A model generated the notes under the pieces. That model saw only the letters and a program-made list of their open reading frames with translations, searched no databases and had not been told where the DNA came from. A stretch of 15,983 nucleotides of DNA, from assembly GCA_963777155.1 (NCBI GenBank), contig CAVZPM010000024.1:1-15983 (forward strand), given 5' to 3'. The translations under genes and the position numbers were made by a program. Origin of the DNA: Candidatus Bathyarchaeota archaeon. GTDB lineage: Archaea; Thermoproteota; Bathyarchaeia; Bathyarchaeales; Bathycorpusculaceae. Shown piece after piece: positions 2 through 9,158 of this stretch. Each line of letters starts with the position of its first letter. Within the stretch, counting starts at the first letter, position 1.

Positions 2-367
2 ATACTTCTACCGTTTGACAGCCCCTTTGTTTCGAAAGAGGTTTTGTCCTTGCTCTTTGACTGTTGCATTGGGAAAGCAGCGGCTGTTCCAAGATGGACA
101 AATCAGGATATCGAACCTTTACATGCCGTTTATAATACTAAGCAGGCATTGATAGCTACTGAAGAGGCATTGGCAGAAAATGAATTGGACATGCAGGCAA
201 TGGTTGAAAGGCTACGTGGAGTTCGTTATATTTCAACAATGGTTATTGAGCAATTAGATCCAGATTTTAAAACGTTCTTTAACATAAATACACCCTTAGA
301 CCTAAAAAAAGCGGCAGTAATGGGAAAACCAAGAAAAACATCCAAAGATAAGAAGAAAAATCGGTGA
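2..367 (+). CDS. mobA: Molybdenum cofactor guanylyltransferase (MobA-like NTP transferase), 5'-truncated by the window edge
   Basis: Frame is open from base 2 (ILLPFDSPFVSKEVLSLL...). It carries the MobA-type motifs xxDxPF, IEPLHAVY and FFNINTPxDL. Confidence 0.8.
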   Translation: MLLPFDSPFVSKEVLSLLFDCCIGKAAAVPRWTNQDIEPLHAVYNTKQALIATEEALAENELDMQAMVERLRGVRYISTMVIEQLDPDFKTFFNINTPLDLKKAAVMGKPRKTSKDKKKNR

Positions 368-422
368 TTCTTAACGCATTGTGCACTTGAAATGAGAAAA
401 TAGAAAACTCTTTTCGGTCCAT

Positions 423-1127
423 TCAAAGTGTCGTTTTGCAGACTTGGGGATCTTCAGTTGATTTTTGCCTCTTAGAAATAATGTATATCGCAGATATTGA
501 AAAAGCAGTCAGCAACCCCAAAACTAAGGCAGTGTAACCTAACCCGATCTTTTCCCATAAAACCTCATACACGCCAACCAACCCAAACAACACAAAAATG
601 ACTGCCGATAGCCATTTTAATTTACGTTGAGGAATTCGCCTACAAAAGACAACGCCGATGACGATGCCGATTCCGTCAGCAACTATCATCGCTAAGGTTG
701 CGCCGACTAGAACGCTGATTGGACTTTGGTATTGAACAGCTAAACTTAGGGTTGCTAGCTGCGTCTTATCTCCCAACTCAGCAACAAAAAAGGCAATGCC
801 GACAGTTGCGACTACTCCGAAACGTGAAAGCTTGACGTTGCCTTCTTCAGCTTTTTCTTCGCGTACCGTCCACACCCCAAAAGCGATGAAGGCTACGGAA
901 GCAACCAAGGAGATTGCGTCGATGGGAACGATTTCAGTTAAGAGTTGACCTATGACTATGACTATGGCAAAGTTGGCAACGGTCCCAAGAAAAATTGCGA
1001 AAAGCACTTTAAAAGGGTTATATTTTGCGGCAAAGGTCATGGCTACAAACTGAGTTTTGTCACCCATTTCCGCCAGAACAACTAACAGGAACGCTGCGGA
1101 GAAAGCAGCTAAGCTCAGTTCAATCAA
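423..1127 (-). CDS. GDT1/TMEM165 (UPF0016) family Ca2+/Mn2+ transporter
   Basis: Two copies of the family motif E-phi-G-D-K-T (EMGDKTQ, ELGDKTQ) and multiple hydrophobic helices. AGAGGA SD-like motif lies just upstream of the TTG start. Confidence 0.93.
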   Translation of the reverse strand: MIELSLAAFSAAFLLVVLAEMGDKTQFVAMTFAAKYNPFKVLFAIFLGTVANFAIVIVIGQLLTEIVPIDAISLVASVAFIAFGVWTVREEKAEEGNVKLSRFGVVATVGIAFFVAELGDKTQLATLSLAVQYQSPISVLVGATLAMIVADGIGIVIGVVFCRRIPQRKLKWLSAVIFVLFGLVGVYEVLWEKIGLGYTALVLGLLTAFSISAIYIISKRQKSTEDPQVCKTTL

Positions 1128-1137
1128 TTTAATCCTC

Positions 1138-2140
1138 TTATAGGGGAGGTTTGTCGATTTTTTCGTTATTCAATGTTTTGGTCCACAGTTCGAACTCTGC
1201 TGATGGTGGATGGTCACTAGTAGAGTTGTTTTCGAGTCGATTCAAGAAAAAGGTTTTCTTTGCCAACGATACTCCGCAGCCGTCACAATCCTATGCTCCG
1301 CTTTGGAAGCTTTTTGGAAAACCTCCTCCATTTTCGGACGCCAAGATTCATCCCTCAAAGCGTGATGTTCCAAAATTGTCAATGGCACCTCTTCAACAAT
1401 GCGCCCAAGGTTTCTCAACCCTTGCTCGAGCTGACTTGATTCAACACGAATTCCTCCCAGATAAAACGGTGGACCACCCAGCATATATCACCGTTGGCTT
1501 AGTATCCAAAATCAATTGCGTCGTATGAGTTGACATGGGACCTTGAACGTCAGGTGCAAACATAAACCGCTCATCCCCAACCTCAACAACAACCATTATG
1601 ACCCAGCCCAACATCGAATTCTCGGAGCCATGTGGAACAGCTTCAGAAAAACGCAACATTGTCTGACCATAAGTGAATGTTTTACCGTCTGCCGACTCCA
1701 CCGTTTTGGCATGTTTGCCACCTGTCTTCTAGGAACATCCAGGCACGTTGGCGTTGGCTAGCGTTTATGTTTTCCTTTGAATTCTTTAGGAGAACTGTTT
1801 TGTTTTGGTAGATTTGTCGTGAGGTTTTCTTGTCTTGGGTCCAGTTAACAACCCAGTCCTCGAAAGATGGGGTGTGGTGGTCGAAATGGTAGTGACTAAT
1901 CGTGGTCACTTGGGCTTTGTCGGCTGCTTCGGCGATGTTTTTTCGTAGATTGGCAATGGTTTGGAATTCGATGGGGTGTGGAGGCAGGTTAAAGCGGTAA
2001 GGCGCCAATGAGACTCCTGCATCCAAAAGCACCGTTACATCAGGTGTCTGAACTAATGTGCACATGGAGCGGACCCCGAAGCTTTCCGCTGCCAGAGGAG
2101 TTACCTTAATCTTGCTTAGGATAGAAACAGGTGTTCCCAA
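1138..2140 (-). CDS. UPF0282-family metallo-beta-lactamase-fold hydrolase, split by four +1 frameshifts (about 332 aa when repaired)
   Basis: Motifs AAESFGVRSM, DAGVSLAP, ISHYHFDHH, PHG, FAPDVQGP, GGPP and EHHALRD are spread over ORFs 1682..2140, 1441..1701 and 1242..1484. Two further unlisted segments (VGKENLFLESTRKQLY and SDHPPSAEFELWTKTLNNEKIDKPPL*) end at TAA 1140-1138. Span is 1003 = 999+4 nt. Confidence 0.85.
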
Positions 2141-2212
2141 GTCAATCCTTAATGGCTAAAGGCGCTGGAAAGTAAAATTGTTTATGCAACCAATTTGCTG
2201 TTTTGTGAAGCC

Positions 2213-2226
2213 ACAAAACTTAAGTG
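2213..2226 (+). promoter_or_regulatory. Putative BRE/TATA promoter of msrA
   Basis: A-rich BRE-like run followed by CTTTAAG (acaaaactttaagt), about 40 nt upstream of ATG 2263. Confidence 0.4.
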
Positions 2227-2262
2227 TGAGAAATTCGCAAGTTCCTTGTAGGCTGTTTTTTT

Positions 2263-2830
2263 ATGAGTCAACAACCCAGTGAAAATAAAAGTTTAGAGGT
2301 TGCAACACTTGCTGGCGGTTGTTTCTGGTGTACTGAGGCAGCGTTTAGCATCATGAAGGGTGTTGAGCGCGTCGAGCCTGGTTATACAGGCGGCATCGTG
2401 CCCAACCCTTCGTACGAGGAGGTTTCTACAGGCACCACGGGGCATGCTGAGGCTGCACAGATTTATTTTGACCCCAAAGTCATCAGCTACAAAGAAATCC
2501 TTGAGATATTCTTCACCATGCATGACCCCACATCGCTTAACCGTCAAGGTGCAGACGTTGGCACACAGTACCGGTCAGCTATCTTCTACCATAATCTCGA
2601 ACAGAAAGGGGTAGCAGAAAAACTGATTGAAGAATTAAATAAAGAGGGCATCTGGAATCAAACCCATCGTCACTGAAGTCGTCCAGCTAAAAGTATTCTA
2701 CAGTGCAGAAACCTACCATAAAGACTACTACAAAAAACACCCCAAAGAACCCTACTGCCAAGCAGTCATAACTCCAAAAATCATCAAGCTACAAGCTCAT
2801 TTCATAGATAAAATCAAGGTGCCCCTATGA
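2263..2830 (+). CDS. msrA: Peptide-methionine (S)-S-oxide reductase MsrA, one +1 frameshift at about 2659 (188 aa repaired)
   Basis: Motifs AGGCFWC, GYTGG, P(S)YEEV, TGHAE, HDPT and [15 protein letters not shown]. After removing one base at 2656-2659 the frame continues KPIVTEV...[12 protein letters not shown]...PYC to TGA 2828-2830. Confidence 0.93.
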
Positions 2831-3655
2831 GCGCCAAAATATCAATCTAGTGCTGATAACTTGAGACTGATTTAGCTAGGCACCTGAGTTAATTAGAAAA
2901 GGAGCAAAGTCAAAACCTAAAATAGACTTTTGCACATCTGAAATTCAGAAAAGACAATTAAGTTACGCAATCGATCGAAGTTGATCATTTTTAAATAAAC
3001 TGACTATCAGGCTTATTTCCTGTTTAGCATCAATCAAAGAAGCAACACTTTCTTAACCAAAATTTCATGGCTCAACGCTAAAGTGGCGAACAAATAACTT
3101 TGAAGAGTATGACTTTTTGGATTTTGGCTCATTATTGAGCCTTCATAAACGAGATATCTTGTTAGAACATTTTTGTAATTAAGGAATATCCTTGACTTCT
3201 CTCTATAAGGTGTTAGTAAGTGTTGATCAAATTTTAAGGATAATTTCTTTTGAACTATCAGAAATTCTCCTAGACATAAATGGTAACTTGAAGGCCGAGT
3301 TTTCAGCTCTCAAAGAAATCCATAATCATTTAACAGCGGAAACAAAAATTGAAAAAGATACCATAAATAAACAACCTTGGTAACTTACCGTTTAACCCTA
3401 TCATAGTCAACCAGCTGATGAATCTGCCAAAAAGGTAAGGAAAGATAGTGCTTATGCGGTTAAACGTTATTTCATAATCTTTAGCCCAAAGCTTTAATGA
3501 TTGACTGGGTTGCATTTGTGTGGGTGGGCGATGACGACTCTGGCCCCGAAGACGCAAGGATGATGAGGATCTTGAGTGCGTGAATGCAAACATGATAATT
3601 TAACAGTTTGAAGGTTTGCCTTCTAGGAGCCCCCCACTTCGATCAAACGCGTTTC

Positions 3656-3889
3656 TCAAAAGAATGCGGCGATTCCCTGAAAAAGCACACCTAAAGAAAG
3701 GAATAGGATTATGATCTCTTGTTTTTTTTCTTCTTTAAAATGCTCTTCATCTGATCTTGAAGCATGCTTTGTATGCTGCAGATTCCATTTTTTGAAGCTA
3801 TACGAAATCATTCTTGCAGCCCATCCGATAGCCACTATTTCAAAAATGACGCCTATGACATTGAAGATAAGGGGTATTGAAAGATACAT
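3656..3889 (-). CDS. Small hypothetical membrane protein (2 TM helices, charged loop)
   Basis: 77 aa, ATG start, AAGGA upstream. Hydrophobic N- and C-terminal segments flank a charged linker. Confidence 0.55.
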   Translation of the reverse strand: MYLSIPLIFNVIGVIFEIVAIGWAARMISYSFKKWNLQHTKHASRSDEEHFKEEKKQEIIILFLSLGVLFQGIAAFF

Positions 3890-4193
3890 TTTCTAAATTC
3901 CTTAAGTTGATGTGTGTATAAGCACTAATATTAATGTCATGTTTAGGGTGTGTCCTTGAAACTTAATGATAAGTTTTTGGTGTGCACTCTTCAGGTTGAT
4001 AGGTCTAAAGAGCCCACCTAATAACAAGTTACTCTCTAAGGGTGTAGCTCTAATTCAGTGATAGAAGGGAGATTTTCGCATTTGACAATTCTACTTATAA
4101 TTCCAATAGTCTTTCACGGTATTCTGTGTTAATTTTCAATTTTAATTGCGATATAAACATAGAGGATTATCAATTAATGCTTGGACTATTACT

Positions 4194-4688
4194 TTAAACA
4201 ATCATTTTGTAGAATACAGCCGATTGTCCTTCTGAAGATAGAATCCTGATTTGGTAGGTATTGGCAAATGTTATGCCATCCGCTAAAGTCAAAAGCACCT
4301 CTATAGTGGAATTTTTTGGCACGGTTATGTTTTTTTCAAAGTTTGCTGGATAATTGTTGACATAGACGTCAGTAATTTCTACTGTTGATGAATCAAAGTT
4401 GGAGATTGAAACCAAAAAGGAACATGTTGTTAGATTGGTTTGTACGTTTGTTATGGTTAATTTGTCAGTATTGGATGGGGGATAGGGGTTGGAAATGTTA
4501 GGGTTATCCGTTGCGGAGTTGGGAAATGTAAGAACAATGCTACCCATAATCATAGATTTTGGGATGTCATCGTTATGAGCAGTTGGTTGGGGGATTAATA
4601 TGCCCAGTACAGCACAATTTAGAACAATAGCAAACGTGATCAGAATAATGATGGTCAAGTACTTACGCATATTTTCTCGTAAGCTCAA
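4194..4688 (-). CDS. Membrane-anchored hypothetical protein with beta-rich (pilin/Ig-like) C-terminal domain; likely start ATG 4670
   Basis: Basic N-terminus plus one TM helix, a P/N/S-rich linker, then alternating beta-strand patterns (VSISN...VEITDVYVN...YQIRILSSEG). Confidence 0.7.
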   Translation of the reverse strand: MSLRENMRKYLTIIILITFAIVLNCAVLGILIPQPTAHNDDIPKSMIMGSIVLTFPNSATDNPNISNPYPPSNTDKLTITNVQTNLTTCSFLVSISNFDSSTVEITDVYVNNYPANFEKNITVPKNSTIEVLLTLADGITFANTYQIRILSSEGQSAVFYKMIV

Positions 4689-4813
4689 TCGTTGAGAAGG
4701 AAGTATAACATTTATGATTTTTAAATAAAGAATTCAGCTAAACATCGTTTACTTTTGTGCATCTTTAAGCTATATAAGAAAGGAACTGCTAGATGTTTAT
4801 TTGGTGACTTGTT

Positions 4814-5146
4814 TTGGTTTTAGCTAGAATGTCTGTTTGGCATTTTAAAGAAGGCAAAGGCGAAAAAGGTTTTTCCGAACTTGACTTGCTCCTTAACACT
4901 TTAGCGCATCAAACAGAGGGGTTCCGTGGAGCCATCTCACTTGGTTGATGACGATGACCCAAACGCGGTAACAATCCTTACGCTGTGGATAGACCAGGAA
5001 ACCTTAGATCGATCAGAAAAAGACGTTTTCTCCCAAGCGGTCAAAAGAGTCAAGATTTAATCGATAGACCCCCACAAGTTAAGCACTACAAGGTGTTCTC
5101 AACAGAGCTCTTTCAACGTTCAAAGTGGCCGTTCCGCTGGGCATAG
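4814..5146 (+). CDS. Antibiotic biosynthesis monooxygenase (ABM)-like dimeric alpha/beta-barrel protein, broken by compensating +1/-1 frameshifts (about 110 aa repaired)
   Basis: GGTGA SD at 4803-4807 and TTG at 4814. Repaired translation: MVLARMSVWHFKEGKGEKGFSELDLLLNTLAHQTEGFRGAISLVDDDDPNAVTILTLWIDQETLDRSEKDVFSQAVKRV(K/Q)DLIDRPPQVKHYKVFSTELFQRSKWPFRWA*. It shows ABM-like (P/E)GF.G, D....N..T.LT.W and P.V..Y.V patterns. Confidence 0.7.
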
Positions 5147-5252
5147 CTTGAAGAGCTGATCGACCCCAACATTATCGGTTACGAAAACTGTTAAGCAACA
5201 CTCCTAACTCTAAAGTGACCTTGACTTCGTCAACCATTTGTCGAAAATTAGT

Positions 5253-5265
5253 AAAAAAAAGAAAA
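5253..5265 (-). terminator. Oligo-T archaeal terminator after KH gene copy A
   Basis: TTTTCTTTTTTTT directly after the TAA on the minus strand. Confidence 0.6.
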
Positions 5266-5844
5266 TTATTTGTCTTCTGGCGGTTTTTCCCACAGGTCAA
5301 GTTTCTGCTTCTTTAATTCTGTGCGCTTCTTCTGCAAGTAATTGTAGACTGTATGGTGCTCACAGCCTTCGACAATCATTTGAACCGCGTTGCGTGCAGC
5401 ATCGGCCTCCTCAAAACTGCCAATAATCCCCACTGTGTGACCATAAACAACAACGTCAGCTTCTGTTAATTCTTCGATTAGTTTTCGTGTTTTGCCTTCG
5501 GTGCCGATTATTCTGCCCTTTATGCGTTTAATGTCTGATTCGGAACGCCCAAAAATTAGGCGCAGATCAATCATGTCGAAAATTTCGTCTTCATTACGGA
5601 TCAGACGAAAAGCAGTCTCAGGAGTGAATCCTCTTCCGATGGCTGTTACTACATCTTTGGCCTTCAGAAGTAAGGATGGGTCGGGCGCGTTTTCAGGGAG
5701 TGCTATTGTTACGCTGCCTTCCTTGTCAATATCGACCTTGACGTTGAGTTTTGCTTCGATTTCCTGTTTCACTTTGCCTTCAGGACCAATCAGTGTGCCC
5801 ACTCGGTCTTTAGGAATTTTCACAAAAGTATCTGGACCAGACAT
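5266..5844 (-). CDS. dim2: KH-domain RNA-processing protein (archaeal Dim2/Pno1-like), copy A, native C-terminus
   Basis: KH motifs LIGPEGKVK and RIIGTEGKTR, plus AIGRGF and HHTVY. Its start overlaps the rio1 stop codon. Confidence 0.92.
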   Translation of the reverse strand: MSGPDTFVKIPKDRVGTLIGPEGKVKQEIEAKLNVKVDIDKEGSVTIALPENAPDPSLLLKAKDVVTAIGRGFTPETAFRLIRNEDEIFDMIDLRLIFGRSESDIKRIKGRIIGTEGKTRKLIEELTEADVVVYGHTVGIIGSFEEADAARNAVQMIVEGCEHHTVYNYLQKKRTELKKQKLDLWEKPPEDK

Positions 5845-6641
5845 TACTTACCAACAACCTTCTTGTATAATTCTTCAACTGGGTAAACATCAACGTCTAA
5901 CCGCTTAAAGAACCTATTTACATTCTCCAAATCCCGCCGCAACATGAAGTCAGCCAAAGGATGCTGAAGGGATACGGATTGAGAAACGTCAAAAACCACT
6001 GGTTTGCCCTTCCACATCATAATGTTGTATTCGCTTAGGTCGCCGTGGACGATCTTGGCTTTTTGGTAGAGCCTTTTTATGTAGGTTACGATTATTTTGT
6101 AGACTTTTTCTGGGTTAGCTGGGGGCTGCTCTTTAAGCGATGGGGCGCTAACTCCGTCTTTCCCGATAAACTCCATAACAACAATGTTGCTTTTGACTGC
6201 GATGGGTTTTGGAACACGCACCTTTGCAGCGTCAGCTTCCCCTAGATTGCGAAACTCTTTCTGTGCCCAAACTGCCATCAATGAGCGGGTGTCATGCTTG
6301 ACATCTTTGAATCGTGGGTCGCCTTCAATGTATTTGTGCATACCCTTCTTGAATTCTGCAGAGGACGTTAAGTAAATCTTCACAGCTAAGTCGGTGCCTT
6401 CTTTGTTGGTGCCCCAGTACACTTTTGCTTCTTTGCCTGAACTCACCGCGCCATTAAGCTCATACAAAATGCCGCTATTGAGCATGTCAAAGACTACCAT
6501 GCGGGTAGTTTGGTCGAAAACTTCTTCAACAGTGGCGCGTTCCTTGGAGCGGTCGTGAGTTAGCATTTTGTCTCTACGCTCTATTCTTCTTTCGGTATGG
6601 GCAATACGCTCTTGGGCTTTTCGTGACATAATATCAAGCAT
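5844..6641 (-). CDS. rio1: Rio1 atypical serine kinase (SSU ribosome biogenesis), copy A; start may be ATG 6629
   Basis: SSGKEAKVY P-loop, AVKIY, WAQKEFRNL, catalytic loop VHGDLSEYNI, and FDVSQSV. Confidence 0.95.
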   Translation of the reverse strand: MLDIMSRKAQERIAHTERRIERRDKMLTHDRSKERATVEEVFDQTTRMVVFDMLNSGILYELNGAVSSGKEAKVYWGTNKEGTDLAVKIYLTSSAEFKKGMHKYIEGDPRFKDVKHDTRSLMAVWAQKEFRNLGEADAAKVRVPKPIAVKSNIVVMEFIGKDGVSAPSLKEQPPANPEKVYKIIVTYIKRLYQKAKIVHGDLSEYNIMMWKGKPVVFDVSQSVSLQHPLADFMLRRDLENVNRFFKRLDVDVYPVEELYKKVVGK

Positions 6642-6657
6642 GCTAACGGCTTTTGGG

Positions 6658-6665
6658 TATTAAAA
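6658..6665 (-). promoter_or_regulatory. TATA-like box (TTTTAATA) upstream of rio1 copy A; identical copy at 8031-8038
   Basis: Lies about 30 nt upstream of ATG 6629 (MSRKAQ), a spacing compatible with a short-leader archaeal transcript. Confidence 0.4.
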
Positions 6666-7217
6666 CCAGTCGAGCTTCTGCTTCTTTAATTCTGTGCGCT
6701 TCTTCTGCAAGTAATTGTAGACTGTATGGTGCTCACAGCCTTCAACAATCATTTGAACCGCGTTGCGCGCAGCATCAGCCTCCTCAAAACTGCCAATAAT
6801 CCCCACCGTGTGACCATAAACAACAACGTCAGCTTCCGTTAATTCTTCGATTAGTTTTCGTGTTTTGCCTTCGGTGCCGATGATTCTACCCTTTATGCGT
6901 TTAATGTCTGATTCGGAACGCCCAAAAATTATGCGCAGATCAATCATGTCGAAAATTTCATCCTCATTACGGATCAGACGAAAAGCAGTCTCAGGAGTGA
7001 ATCCTCTTCCGATGGCTGTTACTACATCTTTGGCCTTCAGAAGTAAGGATGGGTCGGGCGCGTTTTCAGGGAGTGCTATTGTTACGCTGCCTTCCTTGTC
7101 AATATCGACCTTGACGTTGAGTTTTGCTTCGATTTCCTGTTTCACTTTACCTTCAGGACCAATCAGTGTGCCAACTCGGTCTTTAGGAATTTTCACAAAA
7201 GTATCTGGACCAGACAT
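6660..7217 (-). CDS. dim2: KH-domain RNA-processing protein (Dim2/Pno1-like), copy B, with junction-derived C-terminus (...KLDWF*)
   Basis: Identical to copy A except for one L/I change, and LWEKPPEDK replaced by WF at the duplication junction. Confidence 0.9.
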   Translation of the reverse strand: MSGPDTFVKIPKDRVGTLIGPEGKVKQEIEAKLNVKVDIDKEGSVTIALPENAPDPSLLLKAKDVVTAIGRGFTPETAFRLIRNEDEIFDMIDLRIIFGRSESDIKRIKGRIIGTEGKTRKLIEELTEADVVVYGHTVGIIGSFEEADAARNAVQMIVEGCEHHTVYNYLQKKRTELKKQKLDWF

Positions 7218-8014
7218 TACTTACCAACAACCTTCTTGTATAATTCTTCAACTGGGTAAACATCAACGTCTAACCGCTTAAAGAACCTATTTACATTCTC
7301 CAAATCCCGCCGCAACATGAAGTCAGCCAAAGGATGCTGAAGAGATACGGATTGAGAAACATCAAAAACCACTGGTTTACCCTTCCACATCATAATGTTG
7401 TATTCGCTTAAGTCACCGTGGACGATCTTGGCTTTTTTGTAGAGCCTTTTTATGTAGGTAACTATTATTTTGTAGACTTTTTCTGGGTTAGCTGGCGGTT
7501 GCTCTTTAAGCGATGGGGCGCTAACTCCGTCTTTCCCGATAAACTCCATAACAACAATGTTGCTTTTGACCGCGATAGGTTTTGGAACACGCACTTTCGC
7601 TGCGTCAGCTTCCCCTAGATTGCGAAACTCTTTCTGTGCCCAAACTGCCATCAATGAGCGGGTATCATGCTTAACATCTTTGAATCGTGGATCGCCTTCA
7701 ATGTATTTGTGCATACCCTTCTTGAATTCTGCAGAGGACGTTAAGTAAATCTTCACAGCTAAGTCTGTGCCTTCTTTGTTTGTGCCCCAGTACACTTTTG
7801 CTTCTTTGCCTGAACTCACTGCGCCATTTAGCTCATATAAAATGCCGCTATTGAGCATGTCAAAGACTACCATGCGGGTAGTTTGGTCGAAAACTTCTTC
7901 AACAGTGGCGCGTTCCTTGGAGCGGTCGTGAGTTAGCATTTTGTCTCTACGCTCTATTCTTCTTTCGGTATGGGCAATACGCTCTTGGGCTTTTCGTGAC
8001 ATAATATCAAGCAT
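7217..8014 (-). CDS. rio1: Rio1 atypical serine kinase, copy B
   Basis: Same motifs as copy A, with a single Q/K difference. Confidence 0.95.
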   Translation of the reverse strand: MLDIMSRKAQERIAHTERRIERRDKMLTHDRSKERATVEEVFDQTTRMVVFDMLNSGILYELNGAVSSGKEAKVYWGTNKEGTDLAVKIYLTSSAEFKKGMHKYIEGDPRFKDVKHDTRSLMAVWAQKEFRNLGEADAAKVRVPKPIAVKSNIVVMEFIGKDGVSAPSLKEQPPANPEKVYKIIVTYIKRLYKKAKIVHGDLSEYNIMMWKGKPVVFDVSQSVSLQHPLADFMLRRDLENVNRFFKRLDVDVYPVEELYKKVVGK

Positions 8015-8123
8015 GCTAACGGCTTTTGGGTATTAAAACCAGTCGAGCGCAAAACGATTTTCTTAGACTTCAGAATGTTCTAAAATAATTGGAGATAACA
8101 AATTAGGAAGTATTAATAAAAAA

Positions 8124-8429
8124 TTACAGGGTTAAAAGACCCTTGCGTCTGAGAGTATCTGCTTGTGAGTGGGTGTAACGCCAGACTACATCGCCCCGAG
8201 TATCAGTTTGGAAATCCCATGGTGAAACGATGACTATGTCACCTTCTCGTATCCAGACACGCCGCTTCATTTTTCCCCGGATACGGCATAGGCGTTCGGC
8301 ACCATCTTGACACTTGACCAGAATGCGGTCAAAGCCAAGTAGTTTAATGACTACACCTAAAACTTCGCCCTGTCCAGGATAGACTAATTCACCAATTGCG
8401 CCTTCGCTTAACACTTTTTTCTTTCCCAA
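8124..8429 (-). CDS. eif1a: Translation initiation factor aIF-1A
   Basis: Motifs LLGFDRILVKCQDG, RLCRIRGKMKRRVWIREGDIVIVSPW and GDVVWRY. GAGGT SD at 8437-8441 and a T6 run after the stop. Confidence 0.96.
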   Translation of the reverse strand: MGKKKVLSEGAIGELVYPGQGEVLGVVIKLLGFDRILVKCQDGAERLCRIRGKMKRRVWIREGDIVIVSPWDFQTDTRGDVVWRYTHSQADTLRRKGLLTL

Positions 8430-8749
8430 ACACTAAACCTCGTTCGACTTGAAAAAAAATATGTACAGCTTGCTTAAAAGGGTAATCTCCACAATACCAC
8501 TTTTATTTTTTTCATTTTTCTATTTTTCTGTTTCTTGTTCTTACTCTATTTTAATTACGTTCCAAAAAATCTGTTAAGTTCAGTGTACTTATCTCTCTTG
8601 GAACACAATGACTTCAAACGCGTTCTTGAAAAGAAAACTAACTAAAGAAGATACTAATTCGCATAATTTGCCATAGGCCTCCGAATCTTATCTTAAATCT
8701 TTTATACAACATACTTACAAAATAATAGACAGTAATTAAGAAAGGAATT

Positions 8750-9158
8750 GTGAAAAAAATGACTTATCAAAACTCTCCTCCACCCCCACCACCAAGTGTT
8801 GACACAAAACTATCTAGCATAAAGACCTACATGTTGATAGCGTTCATTTTCTCGCTACTCTTCATGATCGTTTGGGTAGGCGCTGCTCTCTGGACCATAT
8901 TTGTTTTTGCCGCTTTTTGCAGTCGTCGGACTTGGCTTCTTTGTCATACTACCAGCAATCGTCTATTTCGTGTTGTTCGCAGTTTCGCTAATAGTGTTCC
9001 TTAGAATTTGGAAAATGTACAAAGCAGTAAACGCTGGTGACATCGCAACCCTGAAAGCTACAAGCAACATTCTCTGGGCTATCATAGCGCTTATCTTTGC
9101 TGGCGTAATTCCAGGCATAATGCTGATCATTTCTGATGGGCCAATACATCAATTATAG
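8750..9158 (+). CDS. Hypothetical multi-pass membrane protein with N-terminal poly-Pro tract, one +1 frameshift at about 8900-8918 (about 135 aa repaired)
   Basis: ORF 8750..9004 (PPPPPP plus TM helix) and ORF 8901..9158 (further TM helices, ...GVIPGIMLII) join after removing one base. TTTATA-like box near 8700 and a T-rich tract at 9186-9212. Confidence 0.75.

Follow-up and report, generated by a model that had tools for sequence, protein, structure and literature searches.

Extra single bases in an archaeal metagenome contig as probable side-by-side alleles of co-assembled strains

Long-read metagenome assemblers generate indels that no read supports, haplotyping errors, concatenated haplotypes and false duplications (bioRxiv 10.1101/2025.04.22.649783, in its accessible part), and small indels truncate proteins in long-read metagenome-assembled genomes (MAGs), more so in soil data for nanopore reads (accessible portions of PMC13087279 and of the proovframe report, 10.1101/2021.08.23.457338). 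Quadruplet tRNAs, as described for engineered ones in the accessible text of PMC9094753, need an anticodon expanded to suit the given quadruplet and are mostly inefficient. These are the closest described systems for seven apparent +1 breaks in four genes of a stretch of DNA ("the window") that is the entire 15,983-nucleotide contig CAVZPM010000024.1 (C24) of assembly GCA_963777155.1 (G000; 2.29 Mb in 39 contigs), from a Candidatus Bathyarchaeota archaeon. On the evidence of the sequences compared here, we judge these breaks, with a probability of about 0.86, to be an assembly artefact, a consensus error that retained both letters of strain single-nucleotide polymorphisms (SNPs).

The contig would accordingly merge several closely related strains of one archaeon into a single consensus. 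Where strains present at similar shares differ by a substitution, the consensus step would sometimes align the two alleles as adjacent gaps and retain both; the outcome would be a one-base insertion that is carried by no cell, with loss of a base occurring less frequently, and the genes would be intact in the cells. Most such insertions would read as a quadruplet XYNN' (in which XYN and XYN' specify the same amino acid) because third codon positions hold about three quarters of the SNPs between strains (1733/2336 between second copies within the assembly). We infer that the source reads contain both alleles, that consensus building or polishing introduced the error, and that the assembly was built from long reads. 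In a toy alignment score in which a mismatch is about as costly as two gaps, retaining both letters scores equal or best at shares near 50:50, and omitting both is never the best option, an asymmetry that matches the excess of +1 over -1 events; one of the score sets is what we take to be a polisher's default. Signs of strain mixing are present elsewhere in the assembly: self-overlap at 85-99% identity is widespread, includes tandem near-duplicates, and provides a second copy for 257 kb.

In the accessible part of bioRxiv 10.1101/2025.04.22.649783, frame-breaking indels are likewise found in no read, subpopulations are concatenated, and false direct duplications resemble the one at 5296-8048 of the window (see below); the placement of the two alleles of a single SNP side by side, and the codon-position signature that goes with it, belong to the present case and are not described in that part. 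Proteins are also shortened by small indels in the long-read MAGs of PMC13087279, but the errors there are, as far as its accessible text goes, sequencing noise, whereas insertions here outnumber deletions 176 to 37 genome-wide and follow strain SNP positions. A literature search found no explicit account of a two-allele insertion or of its signature (which does not prove that none exists), and retention of both alleles is not mentioned in the accessible portion of PMC13048229.

The seven quadruplets are present at the coordinates that the initial annotation had given them, and within each the two triplets specify one and the same amino acid. All four genes have a net extra base; at the six sites outside the membrane gene, contig C23 of the same assembly (also L123), relatives and metagenome contigs are shorter by one. 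C23 aligns to window positions 5-563, 955-3930 and 4152-5299 at 93-96% identity, and is one base shorter, reading triplets, at all six sites that it covers (window 1219, 1268, 1484, 1730, 2659 and 4939). Among aligned relatives (C23 included) the shorter form is found at the four sites of the UPF0282-like gene in 19/20 (1220), 19/20 (1269), 18/20 (1486) and 20/20 (1730) sequences, at the msrA site (2658) in 16/16 and at the ABM-like site (4940) in 5/5. In metagenome contigs (all such counts refer to the best 80 of 428 loci) the corresponding numbers are 77/78, 78/80, 78/79 and 80/80 for the UPF0282-like gene, 33/33 for msrA and 2/2 for the ABM-like gene. Contigs from three public runs (X1, X2 and X6; contigs rather than raw reads, the best run containing 0.27 of the words and no RNA run being among those listed) cross the sites and differ in length as expected; 12 of 116 indel rows are among the matches listed, and five sites are visible through record lengths alone. 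Thus, record 28 of X6 has four gaps, with 660 letters over 664 bases, and record 6 of X1 and record 30 of X6 have two gaps across 4940 and 5050, with a net difference of zero. G102 (a genome of the same genus, whose orthologs fall into archaeal families, aEF-2 and the archaeal proteasome among them), G092 and G131 have one-base indels of their own in these three genes, at different codons (in G102, for example, codon 203 of UPF0282 is GTCG, Val/Val).

The UPF0282-like (PRK04286-like) metallo-hydrolase gene (1133..2140, minus strand; start approximate) is in pieces in the window and is a single 332-aa frame in C23. Its match to NCBIfam PRK04286 has an E value of 2.7e-73, under the curated cut-offs, and a frame of at least 300 aa is open in 78/80 metagenome contigs. 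(In one compared sequence, L010 of G016, the ortholog's frame is just 180 aa, yet there is no gap relative to C23.) Three of the four +1 sites in this gene can be placed as synonymous pairs. TACT at 1219..1222 (minus strand) is TAC/TAT (Tyr), with TAC in C23 and L136 and TAT in L145, and CTAG at 1729..1732 (minus strand) is CTA/CTG (Leu), with CTA in L136 and L145 and CTG in C23; for these two sites, both predicted alleles are thus found in sequences that share 92-94% identity with the window. TATC at 1268..1271 (minus strand) is TAT/TAC (Tyr), with TAT in C23, L136 and L145 and TAC in L137, L138 and L140. More distant relatives have CAG at 1729-1732, which makes CTG/CAG (Leu/Gln) a second possible pair; this was dropped as the primary placing at 1730 once L136 and L145 showed CTA. 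The remaining site (1484..1488, minus strand) is not purely synonymous. It is a union of ATA TTG (Ile-Leu) with ATA or ATT ATG (Ile-Met): all near-identical sequences (C23, L136 and L145) read ATA TTG, distant relatives read ATT ATG, so that a Leu/Met change is involved, and base 1484 is the one skipped in X1, X2 and X6.

The msrA gene (2263..2830, plus strand) is split into two PMSR pieces, each matching PF01625, and is an unbroken 188-aa frame in C23. Its +1 site, AATC at 2656..2659 (plus strand), is AAT/AAC (Asn), with AAT in C23 and G092 and AAC in G102 and most relatives. The ABM-like gene (4829..5146, plus strand; a weak PF03992 match, E 0.0011, 19.6 bits against a cut-off of 23.1) is intact in C23 (110 aa) and in G102. 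Its +1 site (4937..4943, plus strand) can be read as TC[A/C] (Ser) at 4937-4940 or as [C/T]TG (Leu): C23 has TCC TTG, G102 and G092 have TCA CTG, L143 has TCA TTG, and uniting TCC TTG with TCA CTG gives the sequence of the window. The CTT/CTG pair that had been proposed at 4940-4943 fails, since CTT is absent from all the sequences compared there (C23, G102, G092 and L143). The ABM-like gene also contains a -1 break that had been overlooked (5049..5051, plus strand), where others read GTC CAA, GTC GAA or GTT CAA and where, at 5050-5051, a base is missing relative to 5/5 aligned sequences and to runs X1, X2 and X6. This -1 cancels the +1 at 4940. That the break at 5050 was caused by loss of both alleles is a guess.

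The small membrane-protein gene (8759..9158, plus strand) is uninterrupted in 11/11 relatives fetched, as a single frame of 131-158 aa. Its break had been placed at 8897-8900 but lies five to seven codons further downstream, at 8913-8919, and residues change. The site (8912..8921, plus strand) is a union of alleles of the type GCT TTT TCA and GTT TTT GCA, or an extra T in a run. The evidence comes from G102, G092 and nine more relatives; G102 reads WTIVVFAAFSVVG, and the upstream frame continues to VFAAF. Base 8913 is skipped in X1, X2 and X6: the 15 gap letters of X1 record 8, matched by depth, correspond to rows 8452, 8501 (9), 8622, 8676, 8680, 8741 and 8913, with none at 8897-8900. The placements at 1219-1222, 1268-1271, 1729-1732 and 2656-2659 therefore hold, and three do not; the claim that all seven sites are synonymous wobble pairs stands for these four, gives way to a different pair at 4940, and is wrong for 1485-1488 and the membrane gene, where the alleles are non-synonymous.

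How much weight a synonymous parse can bear was gauged by simulation: for each setting, 20,000 insertions were placed at random in 1,355 long G000 frames. A random insertion can be parsed as a synonymous XYNN' in 47-52% of cases at the true codon, in 82-86% within one codon of it and in 93-94% within two, and the chance of seven synonymous parses in seven, within one codon, is 0.25-0.34. Because freedom of placement is this large, and because one site is five or more codons off, the seven-of-seven fit in the window is weak evidence, and, taken by itself, the window does not exceed chance.

The stronger evidence is genome-wide. G000 was compared with 1.62 Mb of G102 at a median identity of 89%, which aligned 901 frames over 888 kb of G000. 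The 341 raw indel events were reduced to 213 by removing any that lay within 30 codons of the end of a frame, had a second gap no more than 12 bases away, showed over 6 mismatches in 24, or failed the frame check on either side; 176 of those kept are insertions and 37 are deletions. At their best placement, 128/176 insertions (73%) form a synonymous third-position pair, against 349/738 (47%) of simulated insertions passed through the same pipeline (p 1e-9), and among non-homopolymer cases the pair is a transition in 83/103 (81%), against 229/401 (57%) at random. Insertions that double a neighbour (homopolymer-type) number 73/176 and are not enriched over random; insertions of this type lie in runs of only 2-3 in 83/89 cases, and long homopolymers are rare among the events. 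The inserted site is the exact union of the second copy's and G102's alleles at 7/18 sites that have a second copy (5/16 without the two window sites), against a null of 952/16866 (5.6%; p 3e-5); this count leaves out cases in which the second copy itself has an insertion. An insertion is shared by the second copy in 0/24 comparisons. The reverse comparison, of G102 against G000 frames, yields 310 insertions, 56 deletions and a synonymous pair in 218/310. One-base indels affect 145 of the 901 compared G000 genes, and insertions occur in genes for S3, S4e, L15e, EF-2, aIF2-alpha, aRF1, GluRS, CysRS, SecY, Spt5 and SMC, each of which has one aligned copy in the assembly.

Several observations weigh against retention of both alleles as the full account. 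The allele evidence comes from assembled sequences, and the second allele at 1269 and 2658 is found only in sequences 82-88% identical to the window. A simulation in which both alleles of real second-copy SNPs were kept gives 81% synonymous, 82% transition and 27% homopolymer-type insertions, and the observed insertions fall short of it in synonymous pairs (73% against 81%) and synonymous transitions (40% against 59%) and exceed it in the homopolymer type (41% against 27%). The density of insertions per 10 kb is 2.3 inside second-copy regions, 3.4 near them and 2.3 far from them, where an enrichment was expected (insertions are clustered overall, with a dispersion of 3.1). The third-position excess of deletions (15/23 against 103/205 simulated) is not significant, which is why the dropping of both alleles at 5050 is held to be a guess. 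With observed shares between the random and the two-allele expectation (the mixture is 0.45-0.83 by three measures and 0.14 by that of homopolymer type), two-allele behaviour can be assigned to only about half to four fifths of the insertions in the genome, and ordinary indel errors probably make up roughly a fifth to a half. Not every site, then, need mark a polymorphism. The proposal that the consensus kept both alleles and that the genes are intact is supported by the intact second copies, by the occurrence of both alleles in near-identical sequences and by the genome-wide enrichment; its extension to a polymorphism at each site is not.

It might be argued that nothing more is involved than ordinary low-coverage sequencing or polishing indels, unconnected to strain SNPs, to which free placement lends a synonymous look. 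Such errors surely account for part of the sites: random insertions parse synonymously in 47% of cases in the same codon and in 82% within one, the 73/176 insertions that double a neighbour are above what a pure two-allele model predicts, and the ABM-like -1 and the membrane-gene +1 are readable as run-length slips. As an explanation of the whole they are unlikely, given the excesses of synonymous (73% against 47%) and transition (81% against 57%) pairs over the same pipeline's random insertions, the frequency of exact unions (7/18 against 5.6%) and the confinement of 83/89 homopolymer-type insertions to runs of 2-3. Real frameshift mutations, which would make the C24 strain a carrier of pseudogenes, are very improbable. 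The msrA, UPF0282-like, ABM-like and membrane-protein genes could be dispensable, and four breaks within one gene would suit decay, but the same insertions are found in ribosomal proteins, EF-2 and tRNA ligases, that is, outside dispensable genes, which argues against real gene loss, and mutation has no reason to prefer synonymous wobble pairs.

Genuine decoding of XYNN' as four-base codons with a redundant wobble base, or programmed +1 frameshifting in this genus, would also predict the excess of synonymous XYNN' that G000 and G102 both show, and the sites do sit in essential genes. As with frameshift-suppressor tRNAs (PMC9094753 and, for SufB2, 10.1101/2020.12.31.424971, in their accessible parts), decoding four bases as a single residue would bring translation back into frame. 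In contrast with the quadruplet tRNAs of the accessible text of PMC9094753, however, the 176 insertion sites comprise 102 different quadruplets, not a small set, and specify 16 amino acids in about the proportions of SNPs (p 0.054); the sites are not conserved, the second copy sharing 0/24 and relatives breaking at other codons; 48/176 insertions lie outside XYNN', and there are 37 deletions besides. The anticodon loop has 7 bases in 37/37 intron-less tRNAs (intron-bearing ones, including the likely tRNA-Tyr, are outside this count; Rfam gives 43 tRNA genes). A bias in the sense-strand order of the two alleles (50/69) was also considered, and is gone after removal of neighbour-doubling cases (20/34). 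We regard decoding as hardly credible, and the initial annotation was right to consider it much less likely than an artefact. An equally slight chance attaches to a variant in which the genus tolerates scattered, strain-private XYNN' steps in any gene, the ribosome reading two wobble bases with no special tRNAs. The likely tRNA-Tyr, with two introns, is found at 64884-65037 of contig C31 and at 23733-23886 of contig C18 of G000, where ARAGORN mislabels it as Arg.

Under the preferred reading, retention of both alleles by the consensus, there is most likely nothing biological here. The consequence would be that, of the 901 genes compared in this reference genome, 145 contain false one-base indels, which could be mistaken for pseudogenes or recoding, and a second genome of the genus (G102) has the same signature. 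A preponderance of insertions over deletions, together with synonymous and transition pairs, may serve as a read-free test for a strain-mixed consensus.

A tandem near-duplicate of a unit comprising RIO1 kinase and a KH-domain protein (domains from Pfam) occupies 5296..8048 (minus strand). The copies are 97.3% identical over 1380 bases, with 37 differences and no gaps; the codon changes are 35 synonymous and 2 non-synonymous. The unit is single-copy in 8/8 relatives that contain it within the fetched stretch. The duplicate probably represents two strain haplotypes joined head to tail, and the copies are free of indels between them, as would be expected if clean consensus comes from unmixed reads. 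The joint across the duplicate is not among the 15/34 contig joints listed, which carries no weight. The second KH copy is truncated at a junction near 6660, and C23 stops where the duplicate starts.

An intergenic segment at 3475-3601 is 81-91% conserved in G102, G092 and G131 and has raised contig depth; it has no Rfam match (a search of 2800-5000 gave one chance match) and is possibly a small RNA or a mobile end. C23 has defects of its own: at L123 5110-5264 it is a base short of both the window and relatives, at window 460 and again at 408, and the GDT1-family gene that it carries is without window 564-954 and is 104 aa long, against about 240. Further single extra bases of similar look, relative to C23, lie outside the four genes at window positions 2166, 3390 and 3424.

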